In this document: one piece after another, positions 1,636-11,759 of the stretch
How the letters are laid out: each line of letters begins with the position of its first letter
Position numbering within the stretch: the first letter of the stretch is position 1
Origin: Candidatus Heimdallarchaeum aukensis
Lineage (GTDB): Archaea; Asgardarchaeota; Heimdallarchaeia; Heimdallarchaeales; Heimdallarchaeaceae
Reading direction: 5' to 3'
DNA length: 64,000 nucleotides
Assembly (NCBI GenBank): GCA_021513695.1
Contig: CP084166.1
Span: 1,312,001-1,376,000, forward strand
The notes under the pieces: model-generated
Databases searched by the model: none
Told to the model about the DNA's origin: nothing
The model's input: the letters and a program-made list of their open reading frames with translations, nothing else
Translations under genes and position numbers: made by a program

Positions 1636-4623
1636 ATGCAAAGAACTGGGTTTGTTTTTTTTATTTTCTTAATGCTATCTAGTCCTTTTGTTTATCCTAC
1701 ACTAGCAAAACAAGAAAATAAAATAGACTTTATGTCCAATAATAATAATCAATTGATTTCTTCAATTCAAAATAACAAAAAAATCGTTTATGCTAATGAT
1801 CTTAGTAAAACTTGGGACACTCCACTTTCTGACGAAGAGTTAAAAAAACAATTTTTAGAAGCAGAAGGGAGAGCAATTATTTCTTTTTTCAGTTTTGCAG
1901 AACAGAAAAAAGCGATTGATATACTTGAAGGTCAAGGTATAAATGTAATTCTTAAGTATAATTCTTTTCCTGGACTAAAAATTGAATACAGCTGGAAAAA
2001 AGTAACGGATATTAGTTTAGATAATTTAAGAGTAAAATATGTTTCTCAAATTGGAAAAGATACCTTTTACTCTATTTCATTAGAACAAAATAAAGATACA
2101 ACTTTAACTGGTTTAATCGATCTTTCCGAATTAAGAGCAGCTTTAGAAATAGACTTCCTCCACAATCAAAAAGATAAAAATGGAGACTATCTCTTCGGAA
2201 AGAACATTACAATTGCAGTAATGGATAGCGGTATAGAATCTTCTCTAAAAGGCCTTAATAAAAAATTTAAATATCTTGGAAACGGAGCAATTCAACCTAC
2301 TGATGAGGATAAAATTGTCTACGATTTTAATGCTGTTCCTGGTGAGGATAAAAATGATTTAAGCGGTCATGGTACTCATATAACTTCTATTCTTGCAGGG
2401 AATGGATTTTTCACTGTTGATGGAAAAGTACAATATGAGGGAGAATATGGAATAGTTCCTGAAGCATCTTTGATGAATATTAAAGTTTTGAATGCAAGTG
2501 GTTATGGGAAAGATGAGTGGTTGGTTGATGGTTTTGATAAAGCTATTGCAAATGAGTTAAACATTGTTCCTGATATTATAACTGCAAGTTTAACTTCAAT
2601 TACTTTTTTAAGTGAACATGACCCACTTAATGAAATTGTGCAAGAAGCAGCTAAAAAAGGAATAATGATAGTTACTTCTGCAGGAAATTATGGACCAACG
2701 AGTTCATCTATTGGTTCTCCAGCTGTATGGGAAAACGTTTTATCAATTGGCAGTACCTCAACTATGAAAGATATCTCACTATTCAGTTCAAGCGGTCCAA
2801 CACCATATTTAACAGCTGGAGTGGATTTAGTAGCACCAGGAAGATTAGTTTTAGGATTAAATAGTAGTACAGGAGAAAAGAGATACACATCTGGAACATC
2901 AATTTCAACACCAATAGTTTCAGGAATACTGGCTTTATTAAAACAAGCTTTTCCAGAGTACAACTCTTCACAGTTAGAATCGGCAATATTAAACACAGCA
3001 GACGATTTGAATAAGCCAATAGTTTTTCAAGGAAATGGATTAGTAGACGCTAGAGAAGCTTATTTCTGGTTAAAAAACAACCCAGGGATTACTTTTTCGA
3101 TTCTACCTAAGCGTATTTCACCTGAAAATCTATTCTTTTACTCATGTGTTGAAGGAACACAATCATCTTTCAAAGTGAAAACAATATCTAGTGATGAACA
3201 GCATTTATGGACAAATATAACTGGAGACGATGAGATAGTAGAAATCGGAGAAGAGATAGTTCTTTCAAAGGGTTGGAATATCTTTTCATTTAACATTACT
3301 ATTCCTTATAATAAACCTATTAAGAATTACCAAGCTGTAATAACTTTTACAAATTCTGAAAATTATACTGAAAATATAACAATTAATCTTCAATCTAGAT
3401 ATTACAGAGGATCGATTCTCTTTGATATTAGCCATGATAGTGATATAACAAACAATTCATGGTTTGGTGGATCGTCTCCTTATGGAGCTCATCTATATAT
3501 GGCAAGAATGTTAAAAGATAGAGGTTTTAAGATAAGCACTTTTTCTGAAGGAAACTTTTCTGATGAATTGAGCAAAAATGACATTTTGGTTATTTCAGAC
3601 CCTGAAAAGCATTTTTCTATAGATGAAAGAGAACAGATATATAATTTCATAAAAGACGGTGGTTCATTCTTGCTTTTAGTAGATAGCTATAGAATAGAAG
3701 TAGAATCTGCTAAAGAAGATCCAATTTATCCAAGTAATTATACAGCTATTGACAATTTAGTAGGTTCTCTTGGTATCACAATAGATCCCGATTTCCATTC
3801 AATGCAAACTCCTTATGCTACTGTGTTTTCTAGTGGGCATTCAGATATTACAGATGTAGAGGAAGCATTCTTTTTAGGTTCATGTTTACAATTCGATAAT
3901 GATACAAATTCAGATGTAAAACTTTCTCCTTTATCTGCGATTAATATAGGTACAGAAAAATCTCCGTTCTGGAAAATTACTGGTGTAGTTGGAGAGTATG
4001 GTAAAGGAAAAATAATTGTTTTCGGTTCAGGATACACATTCTCTAATTTTGGATTAATGTATGATGAATTCGATGTAGACTACAGAAATAGAGGTGCAAT
4101 TGGATTAGGGAGTATAAGTTATAACCATTTGTTCAGTGATGAGATGGATAAAAACAATAGAGAACTTATAAATGATACCTTTAGTTGGTTATCGACTTTC
4201 AACAGACCAATAATCGATTTTAGCTTGGATCAAGAAAAGATTCTAATTAGAGAAGAATTTACTATTTCTGTCTCAGTGACTATGACAAGTGAATTTCAAC
4301 AAGGGAATCCATATGCAACTCAATATCTTAATGGAACAATTCTTTTCAGCGACAATTCAATTAGATATGTTGTTCTCTCTGCAGTTGGAGCAGGAATTTA
4401 TGAGCTTTCTACTTCAATTTCGCGTTATGGAGAATTTACGTTATTTATTCCTTTGAAGTTAGAAGGGCACAACCCCACTGACGGGAGAATAGACTTGTTT
4501 TGTGATGTTGAACTTTGGGATCAACAACAAGAAATTGCAAACATAGCAAACCTTGTTCTCACTTTATTTTTCATTGTTCTGCTTGGTTTACCTTTTGTTA
4601 ATTATCGCTTCAAAAATAAATAA
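1636..4623 (+). CDS. secreted subtilisin-like (S8) serine protease with large C-terminal extension and C-terminal TM anchor
   Basis: N-terminal signal peptide; catalytic triad motifs AVMDSGI, GHGTHITS, SGTSISTP; C-terminus LVLTLFFIVLLGLPFVNYRFKNK. Confidence 0.85.
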   Translation: MQRTGFVFFIFLMLSSPFVYPTLAKQENKIDFMSNNNNQLISSIQNNKKIVYANDLSKTWDTPLSDEELKKQFLEAEGRAIISFFSFAEQKKAIDILEGQGINVILKYNSFPGLKIEYSWKKVTDISLDNLRVKYVSQIGKDTFYSISLEQNKDTTLTGLIDLSELRAALEIDFLHNQKDKNGDYLFGKNITIAVMDSGIESSLKGLNKKFKYLGNGAIQPTDEDKIVYDFNAVPGEDKNDLSGHGTHITSILAGNGFFTVDGKVQYEGEYGIVPEASLMNIKVLNASGYGKDEWLVDGFDKAIANELNIVPDIITASLTSITFLSEHDPLNEIVQEAAKKGIMIVTSAGNYGPTSSSIGSPAVWENVLSIGSTSTMKDISLFSSSGPTPYLTAGVDLVAPGRLVLGLNSSTGEKRYTSGTSISTPIVSGILALLKQAFPEYNSSQLESAILNTADDLNKPIVFQGNGLVDAREAYFWLKNNPGITFSILPKRISPENLFFYSCVEGTQSSFKVKTISSDEQHLWTNITGDDEIVEIGEEIVLSKGWNIFSFNITIPYNKPIKNYQAVITFTNSENYTENITINLQSRYYRGSILFDISHDSDITNNSWFGGSSPYGAHLYMARMLKDRGFKISTFSEGNFSDELSKNDILVISDPEKHFSIDEREQIYNFIKDGGSFLLLVDSYRIEVESAKEDPIYPSNYTAIDNLVGSLGITIDPDFHSMQTPYATVFSSGHSDITDVEEAFFLGSCLQFDNDTNSDVKLSPLSAINIGTEKSPFWKITGVVGEYGKGKIIVFGSGYTFSNFGLMYDEFDVDYRNRGAIGLGSISYNHLFSDEMDKNNRELINDTFSWLSTFNRPIIDFSLDQEKILIREEFTISVSVTMTSEFQQGNPYATQYLNGTILFSDNSIRYVVLSAVGAGIYELSTSISRYGEFTLFIPLKLEGHNPTDGRIDLFCDVELWDQQQEIANIANLVLTLFFIVLLGLPFVNYRFKNK

Positions 4624-5081: not shown

Positions 5082-5242
5082 GAAATGATAAACCAGAATT
5101 TTTCTGTTAATTATCATTTCTATTTTTTATAAAACATTCAATTTTTCTACTCTGATTAAAGAAAACCACATTAACTTTATTAATTTCTTTTCGCTTAAAG
5201 AAATACTTTTTTATGTATTATAATTAATTATCTTTGAAAGCT

Positions 5243-6529
5243 ATGACATTAAAGATATTCCTTACAATAGGAGGTTTTTTTGTCTTAGATGACAATAATG
5301 ATGTTATATCTACTAAGACTTTTGAACCTGACCCAGTGTATGTTAGTACAAAGATCTTTAATTTAGAAAGATATAATGAATCTGAAGAATTAAATGCGAT
5401 TCTAGAAGAATATGCTGACACGGAAATTAAAACTAACTCTAGTTTAGTTCGTGATTTTATTCGTTCAAGAAGAAGGAAAGTTTCTTTAGATAATTCATCA
5501 GATGACTTCTATTCATTTCAAAGTTCATTATTTAGCAATTTAGCAAAACATACTAGTATTAAAACAGATGAGATTTATCATCAACTTGTTCGTGAAACTA
5601 ATATATTAATATCAAAAAAACGTGTTGCTGTCGCTAGTCAACGAACTGATAAAATGGTTGTCCATGCTATATTAAGTTTGGATGATATTGTTACTACAAT
5701 CAATCTTTTTATGAGTCGGATTCGAGAATGGTATGGGATTCATTTTCCTGAAATTTTAAAGGAAGTTGAAAACCATGAAACATTTTGCAAGATAATTACA
5801 GAAATTGGAGCAAGACAATTCTACTCAAAAAAAGCATTAGAAGAGTATGGATTTTCTGCTAAAAAAACAGAAAGGATCTATAATTTAGCAAAAAGTTCTA
5901 TGGGCGCAGAATATGATAACAAAGACCTTCTCCCTCTACAACGCTTAGCTCAGCAGACTCTACAATTATTCGAAGAAAAGCGTATGCTCGAAAATTGGAT
6001 AGATGAGCAAGTCAATAAGATTGCTCCTAATTTAAAAGCAATTGTTGGTTCAGCTATTACAGCAAGACTTATCGCTCTTGCTGGAGGTCTTCAAGAGATG
6101 GCACTTCTTCCTTCTTCTACAATTCAACTTCTTGGTGCAGAGAAAGCTCTCTTTAGAGCCTTAAAGACAGGTGCAAAACCCCCTAAACATGGTGTCATTT
6201 ATCAGACTCCTGAACTTCACAGTTGTAAATGGTGGCAAAGAGGTAACATCGCAAGAGCTATTGCTGGAAAATTGACAATTGCTGCCAGAATTGACGCTTT
6301 CCAAGGAGAATACAGAGGAGACGAATTAAAGATGGACCTCGATCAGAAAATTGAGGAAATAAAGGAGAAATATAGTGAACCTCCACAAGGAAAAAAAGAC
6401 CCTGCTCTAATACGTCAGCAAAGACCCCGCGGAAAACCAAAATCTCGATCAAGACAAAAAAACTATGATAAATCCAAAAGTAGGAAACACAAAGGTGGCA
6501 AAAACTATTCCAAAAAAGGAAAAAAATAG
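5243..6529 (+). CDS. nop5: Nop56/58 (Nop5) C/D-box sRNP core protein with lysine-rich KKE/D-like C-terminal tail
   Basis: NOP-domain region (ALFRALKTGAKPPKHGVIYQ); tail PRGKPKSRSRQKNYDKSKSRKHKGGKNYSKKGKK; directly upstream of fibrillarin (conserved archaeal operon); ATG at 5243 follows a TTG-opened ORF. Confidence 0.85.
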   Translation: MTLKIFLTIGGFFVLDDNNDVISTKTFEPDPVYVSTKIFNLERYNESEELNAILEEYADTEIKTNSSLVRDFIRSRRRKVSLDNSSDDFYSFQSSLFSNLAKHTSIKTDEIYHQLVRETNILISKKRVAVASQRTDKMVVHAILSLDDIVTTINLFMSRIREWYGIHFPEILKEVENHETFCKIITEIGARQFYSKKALEEYGFSAKKTERIYNLAKSSMGAEYDNKDLLPLQRLAQQTLQLFEEKRMLENWIDEQVNKIAPNLKAIVGSAITARLIALAGGLQEMALLPSSTIQLLGAEKALFRALKTGAKPPKHGVIYQTPELHSCKWWQRGNIARAIAGKLTIAARIDAFQGEYRGDELKMDLDQKIEEIKEKYSEPPQGKKDPALIRQQRPRGKPKSRSRQKNYDKSKSRKHKGGKNYSKKGKK

Positions 6530-6539
6530 GTGACAAATA

Positions 6540-7226
6540 ATGGTAGAACTAAAAAAACACAAATTTGAAAATCTTTTCTGGTTGCATTTTTCAGATGGAA
6601 AGGTTCGATTAGCTACTAAAAACAGCGATCCAGGTAAAAAAGTGTATACAGAAAGGCTCGTAAGTGTAGATGGAAATGAATATAGAACATTTGACCCCTA
6701 CAAAAGTAAATTAGCTGCCGCAATTAGATCGGACTTACAAAACTTTCCTTTTGATGAAGGAGTTAAAGTTCTTTATCTAGGTGCTGCATCAGGAACTACT
6801 GTTTCTCATGTTTCAGATATCATAGGAGATGATGGAGAGATTTATGCAGTAGAATTCTCTCCAAGATCATTAAGAGATTTAGTAACAGTAGCTGAAAGAA
6901 GAAAAAATATTATTCCTATTTTAGCTGATGCAAGGTATCCTGAGACTTACTCTTTCACTGTCCCCCAAGTTGACATTGTCTTTGAGGACGTAGCACAACC
7001 TTTTCAGACTGAGATTTTATGGGTAAATGTTCAAACCTTCCTTAAAAAAGGAGGCTTCTTCTTTATAGCTGTAAAAGCAAGAAGCATAGATGTTACAACT
7101 AGCCCAAAAGTTATTTTTGAACGAGTTAAAAAAGAGATTCTTGAATATGGATTAGAGATAGTCGAAGAAATCAACTTAGAACAATATGAAAAAGATCACA
7201 TGATGTTCGTGGGTAAAAAACCTTAA
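6540..7226 (+). CDS. flpA: fibrillarin (rRNA/tRNA 2'-O-methyltransferase)
   Basis: SAM-binding motif VLYLGAASGTTVSHVSD; about 228 aa; follows nop5 with a 10-nt gap and an aggtga SD. Confidence 0.9.
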   Translation: MVELKKHKFENLFWLHFSDGKVRLATKNSDPGKKVYTERLVSVDGNEYRTFDPYKSKLAAAIRSDLQNFPFDEGVKVLYLGAASGTTVSHVSDIIGDDGEIYAVEFSPRSLRDLVTVAERRKNIIPILADARYPETYSFTVPQVDIVFEDVAQPFQTEILWVNVQTFLKKGGFFFIAVKARSIDVTTSPKVIFERVKKEILEYGLEIVEEINLEQYEKDHMMFVGKKP

Positions 7227-8350
7227 CTCTCTAAATTTTCTTTTAGCATTGCATATTTTTTGATATATTCCTTAACTAAATCAAACGCTTTTTTCATTTC
7301 TTGTAGTTCGTCTATTGTAAATGTGGGAACTAGTTCTGAAGCTGGATGGTCTTCTTCATCGATTATCAAAATAGGTCTTCTTTTTGCAATAGATGCAATT
7401 TTTTGTGTCATTTCTACACGAGTAATGACATTTTTTCCGTTATCTTCGTCTACACACAACAAAACATTTAATCCGCTTTTTATGTCATGATTTCCATGTT
7501 CTCCATAAGCATCAAAAGGCATTTTTTTAACCCAGAACTGTGATATTAGTCCTAGATCTTCCAATAGAATTGCGATTTCTTCTTTCCTCGGAGTTAGTTT
7601 TTCTATTGAACTAACTGTATCTTCTTCTAAGCTGAATTTAATATTAAAAATAGGTATTCCTTGAGTTAAAGAGGTGTCTAAAATATCTTCCAGTAGAATT
7701 GCTGTTTCTGGAGGAGGATTTATAGAGTGCTCATATTCATACATTGTACGTCTTGAAATACCAATTAAACGTGCTAATTCACCATAACTTAGGTTTTTAT
7801 CCAATCTTGCTTTTCTTAAACTATTTCTATTTATACAGACATAATACCCTCCTCTATTACAATATACTACAGGAGGTAAACCATCGATCATCAAATTCAA
7901 AAATGTCTCAGGACTAATTACTGGGATGTCATGTCTGAATAAGACTAACCCATCTTGAATTTCATCAAATCTTTTTCCTCTTACACCAATAATAACAGGA
8001 GAAGCTTGGAGAAAAGCTGACAAGTTTTTTAATTCTTGAGCTTGTGCTTTTAATAAATTATCAATGTAGGGTTCGATTTTAATGATTGTTAACTTGCTTT
8101 CTTTTTTTGCAATAATATCAAAACATGTATTTGGAGTATTTGTGAGGTCGACAAATGAATAATTCAATTTAGTAAAAACTTTGAGAAGAATTTTTCTTAG
8201 AATCTCCTTTGCTTGACGCGAAGACGAATCCATCAACTCTCTCAGGTTTTCATTGAATTGTTTAATGTCGTCCTCAGAAAACATAGTGTTTCCTCTTTTA
8301 TTCTCAAAAAACATCACTTGTTTATAAATATAAATTTGTCTTTCGTGCAA
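7223..8350 (-). CDS. HTH (XRE/Cro-C1 type) domain protein, putative transcription regulator
   Basis: LSYGELARLIGISRRTMYEYEH helix-turn-helix; convergent with fibrillarin (4-nt overlap). Confidence 0.5.
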   Translation of the reverse strand: MHERQIYIYKQVMFFENKRGNTMFSEDDIKQFNENLRELMDSSSRQAKEILRKILLKVFTKLNYSFVDLTNTPNTCFDIIAKKESKLTIIKIEPYIDNLLKAQAQELKNLSAFLQASPVIIGVRGKRFDEIQDGLVLFRHDIPVISPETFLNLMIDGLPPVVYCNRGGYYVCINRNSLRKARLDKNLSYGELARLIGISRRTMYEYEHSINPPPETAILLEDILDTSLTQGIPIFNIKFSLEEDTVSSIEKLTPRKEEIAILLEDLGLISQFWVKKMPFDAYGEHGNHDIKSGLNVLLCVDEDNGKNVITRVEMTQKIASIAKRRPILIIDEEDHPASELVPTFTIDELQEMKKAFDLVKEYIKKYAMLKENLES

Positions 8351-8353
8351 AAC

Positions 8354-9946
8354 TCAAAGAATTTTACTCATATATGGGCCATCTCTTTCGTAGCCTAGTT
8401 TTCTATAATAATCTCTTACACCAACGCCAGAGATGACAGAAATTTTCTTATAACCTTTTTCGACTCCAATGTCCTCAGCTTTCTGAACTAGTTCTTTTCC
8501 AAAACCTCTATGCTGCCATTCATATTCTTCTTCTCCTTTTTTATGAACAGAAAGGGATTCACCGTAAACATGTAACTCTCTGATAACGATTGTAGGTTGA
8601 GATAGAAATTCAGGTCGATATTTATCCTCACTTAACTCTCTCAGTCGAAGGAAACCAATAATTACATCATGGTTTGTTTCTTCAAAAGACAAAAAGTATT
8701 CAATTCCCTTACTTGCTTTATATTTTCTTTTTACTAGTTCAATTGACTGAGGATCAAATTCTCCTTTGTTCTTGTAGAGATAATGACCAACTTCTCTACA
8801 TCTAATACACCTACACTTTTTGCCTTGTGATTCCATTAAAGCTTGTACATCAAGCCTTAAATCACTTTTTTTGGGACCAGCAACTATTTGATGTGCAGGA
8901 ATGTCTCTTAAAATTCTTTTTATTCGCACGTAAGGAGGAACAAATTCTTTTATTTTGGCAATGAGTTTAATCGTTTCTTCATCTGTTAAAGCTTGGTATT
9001 CTCCTTTTTTCCATAGGTCATAAAGTTTTGTACCAGGTATAACCATTGTAGGATAAATCTTAATTTCATCAGGTTGATAATCTTGAGATTGAAAAATTGT
9101 TTTAAAAGCTTCTATATCTCTTTCTTTTGTTGAACCTGGGAGTCCAGGCATCATATGTGCTGTTATTTTCAATCCTGCATCTTTTGTAAGCTGAATAGCT
9201 CTGATTGAATCAGTAACAGTATGCCCCCTAATCATTTTTTCGAAAACATCATCATAAACTGTTTGAATACCTAGTTCAAGTCTTGTAACACCATAATTTA
9301 ACAATTCATCTATCGTTTGTTTATCTATTTGATCTGGTCTCGTTTCTGCAGTTAACCCAACACATCGATGTTTAGCGTGTTCATTAATTTCATGAGCTTG
9401 CTCTATTGTATCAGAATCTACCCCATTAAATCCATCAAACATTCTTCTAATAAACCATTCTTGGTATTCTTTCGGTTGGTAAGTAAAAGTTCCTCCCATA
9501 ATAATAGCATCTATTTTTTCTGTAGAATGACCTATAGCTTCTAACTGATTAATCCTTTCAGTAACTTGAAGATAAGGGTCATAGTTATTTCTTATCCCTC
9601 TTCTTGATGTAGGTTCATAACCTGTATAACTTTGAGGTCTGTCAACATCTGGTCCCCCAGGACACATAATGCATTTACCATGAGGACAAGCCCAAGGCCT
9701 AGTCATTACTGCGACGATTGCCACACCAGATAGTGTTCTAACTCTTCTTTTCATTAAATAAGGACGAAGTTTTTCTAGTTCTTCATCATTACATATAGCG
9801 AGAATATCACTATTTCTAGGGAAAAAGGATAGAGAATACTCTTTAGATATCTTTCTTTTAATTTGATCAACGATTTTATCAGTTAATTTAGACTGACTCA
9901 ACAACTGTTTTTTAATTTCAGTAAAAGCAGAAAGAGATTTGTTCAT
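8354..9946 (-). CDS. elp3: Elp3 homologue (radical-SAM plus GNAT tRNA-modification enzyme)
   Basis: N-terminal basic region; radical-SAM Cys cluster CPHGKCIMCPGGPD; SYTGYEPTSRR; C-terminal GNAT region (QHRGFGKELV). Confidence 0.85.
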   Translation of the reverse strand: MNKSLSAFTEIKKQLLSQSKLTDKIVDQIKRKISKEYSLSFFPRNSDILAICNDEELEKLRPYLMKRRVRTLSGVAIVAVMTRPWACPHGKCIMCPGGPDVDRPQSYTGYEPTSRRGIRNNYDPYLQVTERINQLEAIGHSTEKIDAIIMGGTFTYQPKEYQEWFIRRMFDGFNGVDSDTIEQAHEINEHAKHRCVGLTAETRPDQIDKQTIDELLNYGVTRLELGIQTVYDDVFEKMIRGHTVTDSIRAIQLTKDAGLKITAHMMPGLPGSTKERDIEAFKTIFQSQDYQPDEIKIYPTMVIPGTKLYDLWKKGEYQALTDEETIKLIAKIKEFVPPYVRIKRILRDIPAHQIVAGPKKSDLRLDVQALMESQGKKCRCIRCREVGHYLYKNKGEFDPQSIELVKRKYKASKGIEYFLSFEETNHDVIIGFLRLRELSEDKYRPEFLSQPTIVIRELHVYGESLSVHKKGEEEYEWQHRGFGKELVQKAEDIGVEKGYKKISVISGVGVRDYYRKLGYERDGPYMSKIL

Positions 9947-9994
9947 CTAAATCTTCGCTCGAGTGATAAAAAGACAAATTGAATAAAAGAATGA

Positions 9995-10177
9995 TTACAT
10001 GTTATGCCTGCGTGAACCCATACTTGTTGGTTGTCCTGGAAACTTTCCTTTAATTACTCTTCTAATATAATTATTTCTGTGTCCTAGTCTTGGTATAGGA
10101 CTAACACGTTCTTTTCCTTGTACTTTTGGCGTTTGTTTTCTTACTTTTCCAGCTTTTTGTAACGAACCGTGACCCAT
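9995..10177 (-). CDS. rps30e: ribosomal protein eS30 (S30e)
   Basis: 60 aa, MGHGSLQKAGKVRKQTPKV...GKERVSPIPRL is the eS30 signature. Confidence 0.75.
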   Translation of the reverse strand: MGHGSLQKAGKVRKQTPKVQGKERVSPIPRLGHRNNYIRRVIKGKFPGQPTSMGSRRHNM

Positions 10178-10221
10178 TTAATCACTTCCACAAATTTCCT
10201 ATTTCATTGCAGATAAGAACT

Positions 10222-10232
10222 ATATAAAAATA
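10222..10232. promoter_or_regulatory. TATA-box-like element (tatataaaaat) about 30 nt upstream of the ncRNA candidate and about 45 nt upstream of the eS30 start on the opposite strand
   Basis: read directly; near-palindromic so could serve either strand. Confidence 0.35.
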
Positions 10233-10261
10233 TTTAGATTTCGTTGAATTCTCAGAAAAAT

Positions 10262-10492
10262 TTGTGCCCAGATAGGAAGGAAATCTTTCTCGATGCTTCA
10301 GAGGTCTGGTAATTGAGGTTATACCTCTTTTGGGGGTTCTGGCAGACTAAAAGTCTGTGTTCTGGGGTTTAGAACTTTGTTAGGAGGTCATTCCTATAAA
10401 AAAGGGGGTGTTTAACCAAACTCATTCGCGCCCTTCACGGAGGGATTGAGCATCGGTTACTCTTCCTATCTGGTTTACACTTCCCTTTTTTA
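10262..10492 (+). ncRNA. GC-rich structured RNA candidate of about 230 nt (SRP/7S RNA or RNase P RNA are candidates; identity and strand unresolved)
   Basis: local GC far above surroundings; 12-bp terminal helix ccagataggaag (10266-10277) / cttcctatctgg (10462-10473); second nested helix cgatgct (10291-10297) / agcatcg (10450-10456); internal hairpins agaggt..acctct and cagact-aaa-agtctg; T-run at 10484-10490 on +; TATA-like box upstream. Confidence 0.45.
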
Positions 10493-10571
10493 GCTCTAAC
10501 TCATCAAAGTATCCACAACATTATTTATAAATCTTTTTCTGATTGTAACGTATATTTAAGAAAGAAAAAAA

Positions 10572-11759
10572 TTATAAAATGTCTTTAAAGCTATTTAAAA
10601 AACCAAGAAGAGCGTAAATAGCTGTTCCTTTCCAAAGTACACTTTCATCTACATCGAATTTCGGATGGTGATGAGGTGCGATTATTCCTTTTTCTTCATT
10701 TCTTACTCCAAGTGTAATAAAAGCTCCTTTGGTCTTTTTTACATAATAAGCAAAATCTTCTCCCCCCATCGTCATTTTTGCTTCACCGACATTGTCTAAA
10801 GCTGAAAGAGTTTTTTTCGCAAGTTCCACTGCTTCTTTATTATTAACTACAGGAGGATAGGTAGGATCATGGAATTTTATTTCAGCTTTGCATCTCCAAG
10901 CTTTACTATAACCTTCTGCTACTTCTATCAATCTATTAATAATATGTTCTCTCACCTCTTCATTAAAAGTTCTAAATGTACCTTCTAAAACTGCTCTAGC
11001 TGGAATTATGTTATGAGCATCACTTCCTGACAGTCTTGGGCTTGATAAAACTACATGTTCCAAAGGATCAATTTCTCTAGAAATTATCTTTTGAAGAGCA
11101 TTATAAATGTCCACTAGCACGGAGGTAGGGTCGAAAGTTTCATGAGGAGATGCGGCATGCCCTCCTTTTCCTGTTACTGTAATTATAAAACTGTCTGAAG
11201 AAGCTAAAAATGGTCCGACACGAGTTTCAATTTTTCCTGCATCATTATCGCCCCACACATGCAATCCATACACATAATCTACATCATCAAGTATTCCTTC
11301 CTCTGCAACTATTTTTCCTCCTCCATCTCCTTCTTCTGCTGGTTGAAAAATCAATTTTACTTTTCCTTCTAATTTATCCTTGTAGTCGTAGATTATTTTT
11401 GCTGCACCTAATAACATTGCAGTATGTGCGTCGTGACCACAAGCATGCATTTTTCCTTCATTTTTACTTTTATACTCTACTTCATTTTCTTCCTGAACAT
11501 TTAAAGCATCAATATCAGCTCTTAAACCAATAGTATAACCTTGTTTTTCTCCTTCTAATATAGCTAATACACCTGTTTTTGCTATTTTCTTTGTTTCATA
11601 ACCTATTTTTTGCAGTTCTTTTTCAATAAAAGCTTGAGTTTCATATTCTTCAAAAGCTGTTTCAGGGTGCATATGCAAATGTCTACGCTTTTCAATTATA
11701 TAGGAACTTAACTCTTTTGCCTTATTTATAATATCTTTTTTTAATTCCTCATTACTCAT
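10572..11759 (-). CDS. M20D-family amidohydrolase (aminoacylase / hippurate hydrolase type)
   Basis: metal-binding motif HACGHDAHTAMLLGAA; typical M20 dimerisation insert; 395 aa. Confidence 0.8.
   Translation of the reverse strand: MSNEELKKDIINKAKELSSYIIEKRRHLHMHPETAFEEYETQAFIEKELQKIGYETKKIAKTGVLAILEGEKQGYTIGLRADIDALNVQEENEVEYKSKNEGKMHACGHDAHTAMLLGAAKIIYDYKDKLEGKVKLIFQPAEEGDGGGKIVAEEGILDDVDYVYGLHVWGDNDAGKIETRVGPFLASSDSFIITVTGKGGHAASPHETFDPTSVLVDIYNALQKIISREIDPLEHVVLSSPRLSGSDAHNIIPARAVLEGTFRTFNEEVREHIINRLIEVAEGYSKAWRCKAEIKFHDPTYPPVVNNKEAVELAKKTLSALDNVGEAKMTMGGEDFAYYVKKTKGAFITLGVRNEEKGIIAPHHHPKFDVDESVLWKGTAIYALLGFLNSFKDIL

Follow-up and report, generated by a model that had tools for sequence, protein, structure and literature searches.

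A conserved structured RNA gene of Heimdallarchaeum and its relatives, with a terminal stem resembling a bulge-helix-bulge motif

Heimdallarchaeia are the closest archaeal relatives of eukaryotes, and apart from the universal species, the Asgard archaea have so far yielded very few stable noncoding RNAs (ncRNAs). A flanking bulge-helix-bulge motif is seldom met with outside tRNA and rRNA. In pre-tRNA, the 5′ strand of the anticodon stem leads into a 4-bp helix (positions 32 to 35) and then into a bulge (positions 36 and 37) that carries the 5′ splice site; the 3′ bulge separates this helix from the anticodon stem. A precedent for a stable ncRNA matured by EndA cleavage and ligation is the signal recognition particle (SRP) RNA of Thermoproteus, a circularised and permuted molecule that Plagens et al. 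are said to have described in 2015 as matured via such a motif. Orphan GC-rich structured RNAs of AT-rich archaea or bacteria that were recognised by composition or covariation, such as HgcC, OLE, and raiA, are also close in kind to the RNA presented here. Archaeal pre-rRNA stems, cut by EndA and circularised by RtcB, are a further close system; Asgard archaea have been observed to contain circular rRNA transcripts, and all genomes examined in the same study encode EndA and RtcB, which make circular rRNA intermediates in model archaea (PMC12918454). Asgard archaea, including Heimdallarchaeota AB_125, are reported to have an (alpha-beta)2 EndA with an L1 loop tolerant of relaxed motifs (PMC5829648). 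Here, we describe a locus at positions 10253 to 10493 of a 64,000-nucleotide (nt) stretch of Candidatus Heimdallarchaeum aukensis (assembly GCA_021513695.1, contig CP084166.1, positions 1,312,001 to 1,376,000 of the forward strand; hereafter the window, whose numbering is used throughout), lying between the genes for eS30 and an M20 amidohydrolase. The explanation that we consider probable is that this locus is an independent gene for a novel structured ncRNA, transcribed from the minus strand and closed by a bulge-helix-bulge processing stem.

Judged from the sequences compared, the segment from 10253 to 10493 is a real, conserved independent gene for a folded RNA of about 215 to 260 nt that matches no described family. 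Its GC content is 0.43 against a window mean of 0.313 (z = 2.8), and it is the only 240-nt segment of the 64 kb with a GC content of at least 0.42 that does not lie within a long open reading frame (ORF); no ORF of at least 30 amino acids (aa) overlaps it. An earlier note, made from the sequence alone, had singled out this place as the only GC-enriched noncoding stretch of the window, and these figures bear it out. The folding energy beats that of all 200 dinucleotide shuffles on either strand (z = −3.4 for the plus strand and −4.5 for the minus strand). The same note had proposed a structured ncRNA closed by a long terminal stem, and this too stands. As seen in the sequence, the 12-bp perfect terminal helix is formed by ccagataggaag (10268 to 10279) with cttcctatctgg (10462 to 10473), its left arm lying 2 nt to the right of where it had been placed, and the nested 7-bp helix by cgatgct (10291 to 10297) with agcatcg (10449 to 10455), its right arm lying 1 nt to the left. 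The hairpin cagac(t)-aaa-(a)gtctg is likewise present, at 10343 to 10357. The letters of one more proposed hairpin, agaggt (10300 to 10305) and acctct (10323 to 10328) separated by 17 nt, can be read in the DNA, but they do not make the conserved pairing; what is conserved there is GAGGU/ACCUC (10315 to 10319 with 10323 to 10327, the helix P3a below) and a long-range pairing of gag (10301 to 10303) with ctc (10421 to 10423). In being a GC island in an AT-rich genome, with a multihelix fold, invariant junction strands, and a function not deducible from context, the locus is comparable to HgcC, OLE, and raiA; it differs from them in its bulge-helix-bulge-type terminal stem and matches none of those families in Rfam 15 by sequence or structure.

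Eight lineages of Heimdallarchaeum relatives carry homologues, each locus having a single copy (loci of relatives are designated by L numbers). The Elp3 protein encoded beside the RNA shares 95% identity with its counterpart in Candidatus Heimdallarchaeum endolithica PR6. Contigs with an identical eS30 protein carry the RNA locus at 96 to 100% identity, the few differences falling in hairpin loops, and Elp3 homologues of 65 to 77% identity led to diverged RNA copies of 62 to 76% identity (L029, L022, L027/28, L025, and L030/31). A pattern scan of metagenomes with the invariant motifs (a strict 28-base pattern) gave three loci, two of which are new lineages (L032 and L034). A relaxed 17-base pattern also returned 59 matches in viral contigs; by nhmmer or the covariance model described below, these are not homologues, and they were set aside as chance matches. 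No copy of the RNA was found within the flanks of more distant Elp3 loci (those of Bathyarchaeia, Thermoplasmata, and bacteria, L096 at 52% identity, and L097). As far as the searches reached, the RNA is restricted to Heimdallarchaeum and its relatives. We found no published description of it in the literature on Asgard ncRNAs, on its motifs as text, or on the RNase P and SRP RNAs of Heimdallarchaeia.

Comparison of these copies gave a fold of ten helices backed by compensatory changes. Since MAFFT alone misaligned the variable inner region, hand and model-based alignments were used. In the hand alignment (A3; 12 sequences, aligned with the structure in mind), 93.6% of the pair cells are standard, versus 38.8 to 49.4% when the partners are slid by one to three columns, and 31 of the 65 pairs change on both sides; column shuffles give 13.0 ± 2.2 such pairs, and none of 500 reaches the observed number. 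Because this alignment was drawn up with the structure in mind, a covariance model (R1) was built from five near-identical sequences of the window's genus alone, and Infernal then aligned the other lineages to it. R1 finds all nine loci at full length (E values from 1e-94 to 7e-11) and nothing else in 295 kb. In the resulting alignment, 91.4% of the cells are paired (38 to 48% in slid controls) and 31 of the 60 pairs change on both sides. RNAalifold recovers the helices P-1, P0, P1, P2, P4, and P6 from both plain MAFFT and model alignments. P4 and the core of P5 are near-invariant, so that what speaks for them is conservation and not covariation.

We now turn to the terminal stem, described here in the minus sense, in which positions run downward. 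Its 5′ strand carries, in order, P-1, zero to five extra nucleotides, P0, AAA, and P1, and its 3′ strand P1, P0, AAA, and P-1. The outer helix P-1 joins the leader strand CUAAAAAA (10486 to 10493) to 10253 to 10260; seven of its eight pairs change on both sides, as in CUGAAAAG/CUUUUCAG of L029 versus CUGUAAAG/CUUUACAG of L022. The central helix P0, always of 4 bp, pairs GUGU (10477 to 10480) with GCAC (10264 to 10267). Its first pair is G-C in five hits and C-G in four; in the window's genus, its last position reads as a U-G pair on the minus strand but as a C-A mismatch on the plus strand. Between P0 and P1 lies the inner bulge AAA (10474 to 10476), which is invariably 3 nt long (AAG in L030) and faces a continuous opposite strand. 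P1 consists of the 12-bp helix and a terminal wobble (13 nt, 10461 to 10473, paired with 10268 to 10280); its inner half, AGGAAG/CUUCCU, is invariant, and 6 of its 13 pairs change on both sides. All lineages therefore keep two 3-nt bulges on opposite strands, 4 bp apart (the outer bulge has 4 nt in L030), and the helices on both sides of this motif covary. The inner side is strict throughout. Opposite the outer bulge, the window has five extra unpaired nucleotides, GGGAA (10481 to 10485), by manual alignment, where other lineages have none or one, and the canonical outer side, without extra nucleotides, occurs in L027 only, suggesting a relaxed bulge-helix-bulge motif in most lineages. The handedness of the motif, with the 4-bp helix 5′ of the bulge along each strand, is that of the minus-sense RNA and not of the plus-sense one.

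On this basis, the leader-trailer helix P-1, together with P0 and the two 3-nt bulges, would form a relaxed bulge-helix-bulge motif that the (alpha-beta)2 EndA may cut 3′ of the second nucleotide in each bulge, where pre-tRNA is also cut. Such cuts would release a body of 213 nt, from 10474 to 10262 (predicted length across lineages, 210 to 260 nt), which RtcB may ligate into a circle, as with archaeal pre-rRNAs; the predicted circle junction would connect ...CUGGGCACAA, whose last nucleotide is 10262, with ACCAGAUAGG..., whose first is 10474. We lean toward the reality of this processing step, with confidence only a little above even. The archaeal pre-rRNA stems likewise have a covarying leader-trailer helix, two 3-nt bulges 4 bp apart, and the correct handedness, and their product is likewise an excised, structured, GC-enriched body. 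Here, in contrast, the body is about 213 to 260 nt long and matches no rRNA model, the gene stands alone with its own promoter, and the outer site is relaxed in most lineages. Likewise, the Thermoproteus RNA is recognisable as an SRP RNA once permuted, whereas this one carries no SRP or RNase P signature in any register.

The promoter comparison makes it quite likely that the gene is transcribed from the minus strand. A purine block resembling a B recognition element (BRE), AGAAAAAG (10533 to 10540), stands directly upstream of a TATA box, TTTATAAA (10524 to 10531), 30 nt upstream of the outer helix. The combined block, AGAAAAAG-N-TTTAWAWA, sits 26 to 62 nt upstream of P-1 in all eight lineages, with TTTA.A.A invariant in the alignment. 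No other block in that flank is conserved, and this one is kept whether the gene beyond encodes M20, PAC2, or another protein. In the window, 10524 to 10540 is the only zero-mismatch match to the 17-mer BRE/TATA consensus. Given the usual archaeal spacing from TATA box to start, minus-strand transcription would begin near 10500. At the other end, two runs of five U, one at 10256 to 10260, within the 3′ strand of P-1, and one at 10226 to 10230, are candidate terminators, after which comes the eS30 promoter region. A U5 to U7 run occurs at most about 50 nt past the outer helix in the seven lineages with flank sequence (L034 has none on that side), consistent with transcription ending at these downstream runs. 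The minus strand is thus favored because of the conserved BRE/TATA block, the downstream T-runs, and the handedness of the terminal motif, and also because P0 closes with U-G in that sense and would hold a C-A mismatch in the other.

Transcription of the same gene from the plus strand is the alternative that survives best, and we consider it possible but unlikely. The terminal bulges would then be no endonuclease site, and the exposed single strands would be G-rich: GGGGGUUCUGG, GUUCUGGGG, a T-loop-like GGGGGUUCAAACC, and a Shine-Dalgarno-like UAGGAGGUC. A plus-strand reading that used the last two together with a possible G-quadruplex of three or four G-runs was entertained and was demoted after the promoter comparison. 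The cues for a plus-strand gene in the earlier note, which itself did not decide on a strand, are a TATA-like TATATAAA (10221 to 10228) and a T6 run (10486 to 10491), and both do exist in the window, the former ending 24 nt before the outer helix and the latter forming its far strand. As gene cues, they are probably misleading: TATATAAA occupies the position expected of the eS30 promoter, within the spacer of 75 nt that precedes the start codon of eS30 (10177), and by virtue of this position is more plausibly just that. Moreover, L029, L022, L025, L032, and L030 have no consistently spaced TATA in the plus sense, and in every lineage the BRE/TATA block stands at the opposite end of the gene. 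On a plus-strand transcript, the conserved internal homopolymer would be a harmless A-run instead of a U-run, and G-U pairs outnumber A-C ones by 12 to 6, though 6 of the 12 come from one terminal column. Against this, the conserved 3-nt/4-bp/3-nt geometry would go unexplained, and P0 would hold its C-A mismatch in the window's genus.

Returning to the minus-sense RNA, its body can be modeled as a rod (P1, an internal loop, and P2) capped by a three-way junction, the large arm of which would hold four invariant single strands. The internal loop J1/2 is semi-conserved on both sides, with GUAAC on the 5′ side (10456 to 10460; consensus GAAUC) and AGAAAGAUUU on the opposite side (10281 to 10290; consensus AG..AGAAU..). 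P2 (10447 to 10455, paired with 10291 to 10299) extends the 7-bp helix to 8 or 9 bp, and four or five of its nine pairs change on both sides, for example, CGAUGCU/AGCAUCG versus CGAAGUUUC/GAAACUUCG in L032. The first arm of the junction is the P6 hairpin (10431 to 10444), CCCU/AGGG with a variable loop, which is 100% paired and is varied to UCCU/AGGA in L027 and CGCC/GGCG in L030. The large arm is closed by the long-range helix P3 (5′ strands within 10413 to 10423), which encloses the core: the lower strand GAG (10421 to 10423) pairs with 10301 to 10303, and the upper strand UGGUUA (10413 to 10418) with 10307 to 10312. In the lower part, A-U occurs in seven sequences and G-C in four; in the upper part, UGGUUG/CAACCA is changed to CGACUU/GAGUUG in L030. 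In the model alignment, all three lower pairs and five of the six upper pairs change on both sides.

Enclosed by P3 (3 bp below, 6 bp above) are the hairpins P5, P4, and optionally P3a, separated by invariant single strands. The first strand, AACACCCCCUUUUUUA (10397 to 10412), is a C-run followed by a U4 to U6 tract and is kept in all lineages. The P5 hairpin follows (10381 to 10396), with the 9-mer GACCUCCUA (10381 to 10389) invariant in seven of the eight lineages and carrying one substitution in L034; its stem UAG/CUA is conserved and is extended differently in two groups. The ACCUCCU of P5 equals, in the same sense, the 3′ end of archaeal 16S rRNA. The P4 hairpin, CAGAC/GUCUG (10343 to 10357), is 97% paired and almost invariant, hence free of covariation evidence, and is duplicated in L027-type lineages. 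On its 5′ side is CCCCAGAAC (10359 to 10367), invariant in all lineages, and on its 3′ side is CCAGAACCCCC (10332 to 10342), in which CAGAACCC is invariant in all lineages; the invariant C-rich strands CCCCAGAAC and CCAGAACCCC thus flank P4, one on each side. P3a, GAGGU/ACCUC (10315 to 10327), reads GUUCG/CGAAC in L027 and is absent from L025, L030, L032, and L034. About 40 invariant unpaired nucleotides are held in fixed positions by this fold: CCCCAGAAC, CCAGAACCCC, GACCUCCUA in the P5 loop, and AACCCC with the U-tract after P3.

The RNA gene is independent and is not a leader, because it has been moved or inverted relative to its neighbors in two lineages. It lies directly upstream of eS30-Elp3 in five of the eight lineages. 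The L022 copy is found beyond the M20 gene, inverted and convergent with another gene, and the copy on the L024/L032 contig is about 6.8 kb from eS30, with its promoter block and structure retained. These arrangements bear on the idea that the RNA belongs to the eS30-Elp3 transcript, as its structured 5′ leader or as a bulge-helix-bulge intron, and acts in cis on those genes, which we regard as improbable. The idea agrees with the five lineages in which the minus-sense RNA has the same orientation as the genes that it directly precedes, and with the only modest T-runs between the RNA and eS30 in the window. It does not fit the two displaced copies; furthermore, eS30 has its own TATA-like element about 45 nt before the start codon, and in L022 and L097, eS30-Elp3 has only about 135 to 145 nt of upstream spacer, with no copy of the RNA there.

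Several features of the surroundings were also recorded. In L022 (1 to 892), the moved RNA gene is about 1.7 kb from the SRP19 gene and about 1 kb from the eS8 gene, and no SRP RNA was detected in that locus. In PR6 (CP084167.1; L012, 1667 to 2614), an insertion sequence stands between the RNA promoter block and the M20 gene and leaves the RNA untouched. It comprises an HTH_23/28/29 ORF, an ORF for an rve integrase-type transposase, and a 55-aa ORF; its breakpoint corresponds to about 10553 in the window, and the window and the other close relatives are without it. On the other side, eS30, Elp3, PDDEXK_19/HTH, fibrillarin with Nop5 (on the opposite strand), a 92-aa ORF lacking Pfam matches, and a large peptidase of family S8 follow in conserved order (about 5228 to 10177 in the window; loci L022 to L031, L094, and L097). 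Among the same lineages, the side upstream of eS30 (M20, SBP_bac_5, PAC2, and the RNA) has been rearranged repeatedly. In L023 (3288 to 3614), L024 (3288 to 3614), L026 (155 to 481), and L025 (3293 to 3619), eS30 is preceded by a divergent 108-aa ORF lacking Pfam matches; this ORF occupies the place of the RNA gene in L023, L024, and L026, and L025 has both. In L025, a 64-aa gene call with no Pfam hit (2999 to 3193) lies atop the RNA gene, on the strand opposite to the favored RNA sense, and is probably a spurious ORF arising from the unannotated RNA.

The earlier note had suggested an RNase P RNA or an SRP (7S) RNA, with a different or novel structured RNA as the fallback, and it is the fallback that the evidence favors; neither identity is borne out by the Rfam scans, which matched no family on either strand, or by signature motifs. 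At gathering thresholds, Rfam 15 gave no match in the window or in 13 related loci, and at E values of up to 10, scans of both strands of the window, L027, and L030 copies gave no RNase P or SRP match and no recurring Y, vault, snoRNA, or riboswitch hit. Scattered matches to PreQ1, mir-223, Termite-leu, suhB, and snoRNA models, all with E values of at least 1, were dismissed as chance. Among these, the snoRNA matches in L027 (E = 5) lie outside the conserved core. A PreQ1-riboswitch-like match at 10574 to 10612, in the 3′ end of the M20 coding region, reaches 15.6 bits (E = 1.5; gathering score, 39) and was judged a chance match in A-rich sequence. ARAGORN found no tRNA gene in the 64-kb window and no tRNA or tmRNA in doubled, "circular" versions of 13 copies. 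As a side observation, the window thus has neither a tRNA gene nor an Rfam family at gathering score, and the same holds for 132 kb of related loci. Box C (RUGAUGA) is absent from both strands in all lineages, and inspection by eye revealed no K-turn, C/D, or H/ACA arrangement, including at J1/2; the distance of about 25 nt from the loop to the 3′ CACAAA is too long for H/ACA, in which the ACA lies 14 to 16 nt downstream of the pocket.

A small or minimal RNase P RNA, in which P1-P2, the hairpin, and the long-range helix would be P1-P2-P3-P4 of the catalytic domain, is a reading that we hold to be very improbable. The size of about 215 to 260 nt is suitable, and CAGAAC recalls the ACAGAA of CR-V. 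The minus-sense order of terminal stem, hairpin, and long-range helix resembles the topology of the catalytic domain of type T RNase P RNA. The minimal type T RNA (Pyrobaculum; RF02357) is of similar size and has the same order of stems, hairpin, and long-range helix; it differs in that our RNA matches no such model, lacks CR-I, CR-IV, and CR-V, has a large internal loop between P1 and P2, and is restricted to one clade. A regular-expression scan of both strands in the eight lineages found no CR-I variant (GNAAAGUCC) and no CR-V (ACAGAA...GGCUUA); GGAAAGUC/AAAGUCC and ACA.AA...GGCUUA are likewise absent, and isolated GGCUUA matches lie in a lineage-specific stem. Neither strand of three divergent members matches an RNase P model (RF00373, RF02357, or related) at gathering threshold or at E values of up to 10. 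In addition, the long-range helix covaries freely, without the universally conserved P4 sequence. RNase P RNA, moreover, occurs almost universally, yet no copy of this RNA turned up next to Elp3 homologues of greater divergence.

Even less credence is due to the idea that the RNA serves a mobile element or defense system as its guide or accessory RNA (a bridge RNA, omega RNA, or reverse-transcriptase-associated ncRNA). Its size is in the right range, its C-rich repeats, among them CCAGAACCCCCAAAA, resemble templates, and an insertion sequence (HTH and rve) adjoins the RNA in PR6. That insertion, however, is lineage specific and lies upstream of the promoter, the RNA is single copy and vertically inherited in a conserved housekeeping neighborhood, no transposase, TnpB/IscB, or reverse transcriptase otherwise adjoins it in any of the eight lineages, and none of the 59 viral-contig pattern matches is homologous. 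An SRP (7S) RNA or a reduced version of it is less likely still: the closed ends, the long rod ending in a two-arm junction ordered as helix 6 and helix 8, and the SRP19 gene about 1.7 kb away in L022 recall one, but the RNA has no Archaea_SRP (RF01857) match even at an E value of up to 10, is about 100 nt shorter than archaeal SRP RNAs, gave no match to the combined helix-8 pattern (GNRA tetraloop plus the symmetric AGG/AGCA loop to which SRP54 binds) in any lineage on either strand, and has no conserved GNRA or GNAR loop in either junction arm, the loop of the small arm being variable.

For the novel, minus-strand ncRNA that we favor, a stable trans-acting RNA would work via its exposed C-rich strands. 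Our best guess, by analogy, is that it is the RNA subunit or scaffold of a dedicated ribonucleoprotein (RNP), which we find more likely than pairing with G-rich, Shine-Dalgarno-like sequences, because a complex junction with invariant joining strands is typical of RNP scaffolds and ribozymes and not of simple antisense regulators. The likeness of ACCUCCU to the end of 16S rRNA is a weak hint that the RNA either pairs with Shine-Dalgarno-like sequences or mimics the 16S tail. As a speculation, the internal U-tract might be an Sm/Lsm-like site or a partial terminator. The boldest form of these ideas, in which the RNA is cut out and circularised by the tRNA-splicing machinery and is a subunit of a new Heimdallarchaeia-specific RNP, or a new ribozyme, with a C-rich core, a 16S 3′-end mimic, and an Sm-like U-tract, is tentative, and we would not bet on it. 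Separately, we noted that eS30 is among the few genes with a Shine-Dalgarno-like motif, GAAGUGAU, 5 nt before the ATG at 10177 (GGUGAU in L027).

Several points weigh against the account given here. The eight lineages form one narrow clade, so that the pair counts are inflated by shared ancestry, and the statistics are not tree-aware; of the two alignments, the manual one was guided by the structure, and the other was fitted to the model. Opposite the outer bulge there is 1 nt in six lineages (a 3 × 1 loop) and 5 nt in the window's genus (a 3 × 5 loop). As for the strand, the G-U versus A-C counts are equivocal, the conserved internal U4 to U6 tract of the minus-sense RNA could terminate an archaeal polymerase, and the promoter block carries a T5 run when read in the plus sense. 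Finally, Shine-Dalgarno motifs are rare in the 22 nt upstream of ORFs of at least 150 aa (GGAGG in 1 of 45 and GGTGA in 2 of 45), and the window shows no enrichment in sites with complementarity to the invariant strands. Both observations weaken the idea of an anti-Shine-Dalgarno mimic, and the former suggests that initiation in the window is mostly leaderless or independent of Shine-Dalgarno sequences.

Annotation based on Rfam leaves this gene blank, and gene callers sometimes put a spurious ORF on the RNA, as with the 64-aa call in L025. The R1 model and the predicted junction between 10262 and 10474 make the idea testable in existing metatranscriptomes and enrichment cultures. If the proposed reading is true, a lineage-specific and strongly constrained RNA, with about 40 invariant unpaired nucleotides, would exist in the archaeal group closest to eukaryotes. 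It would also be a new client of the EndA/RtcB excision-circularisation pathway, and it would imply a partner, whether protein or nucleic acid.

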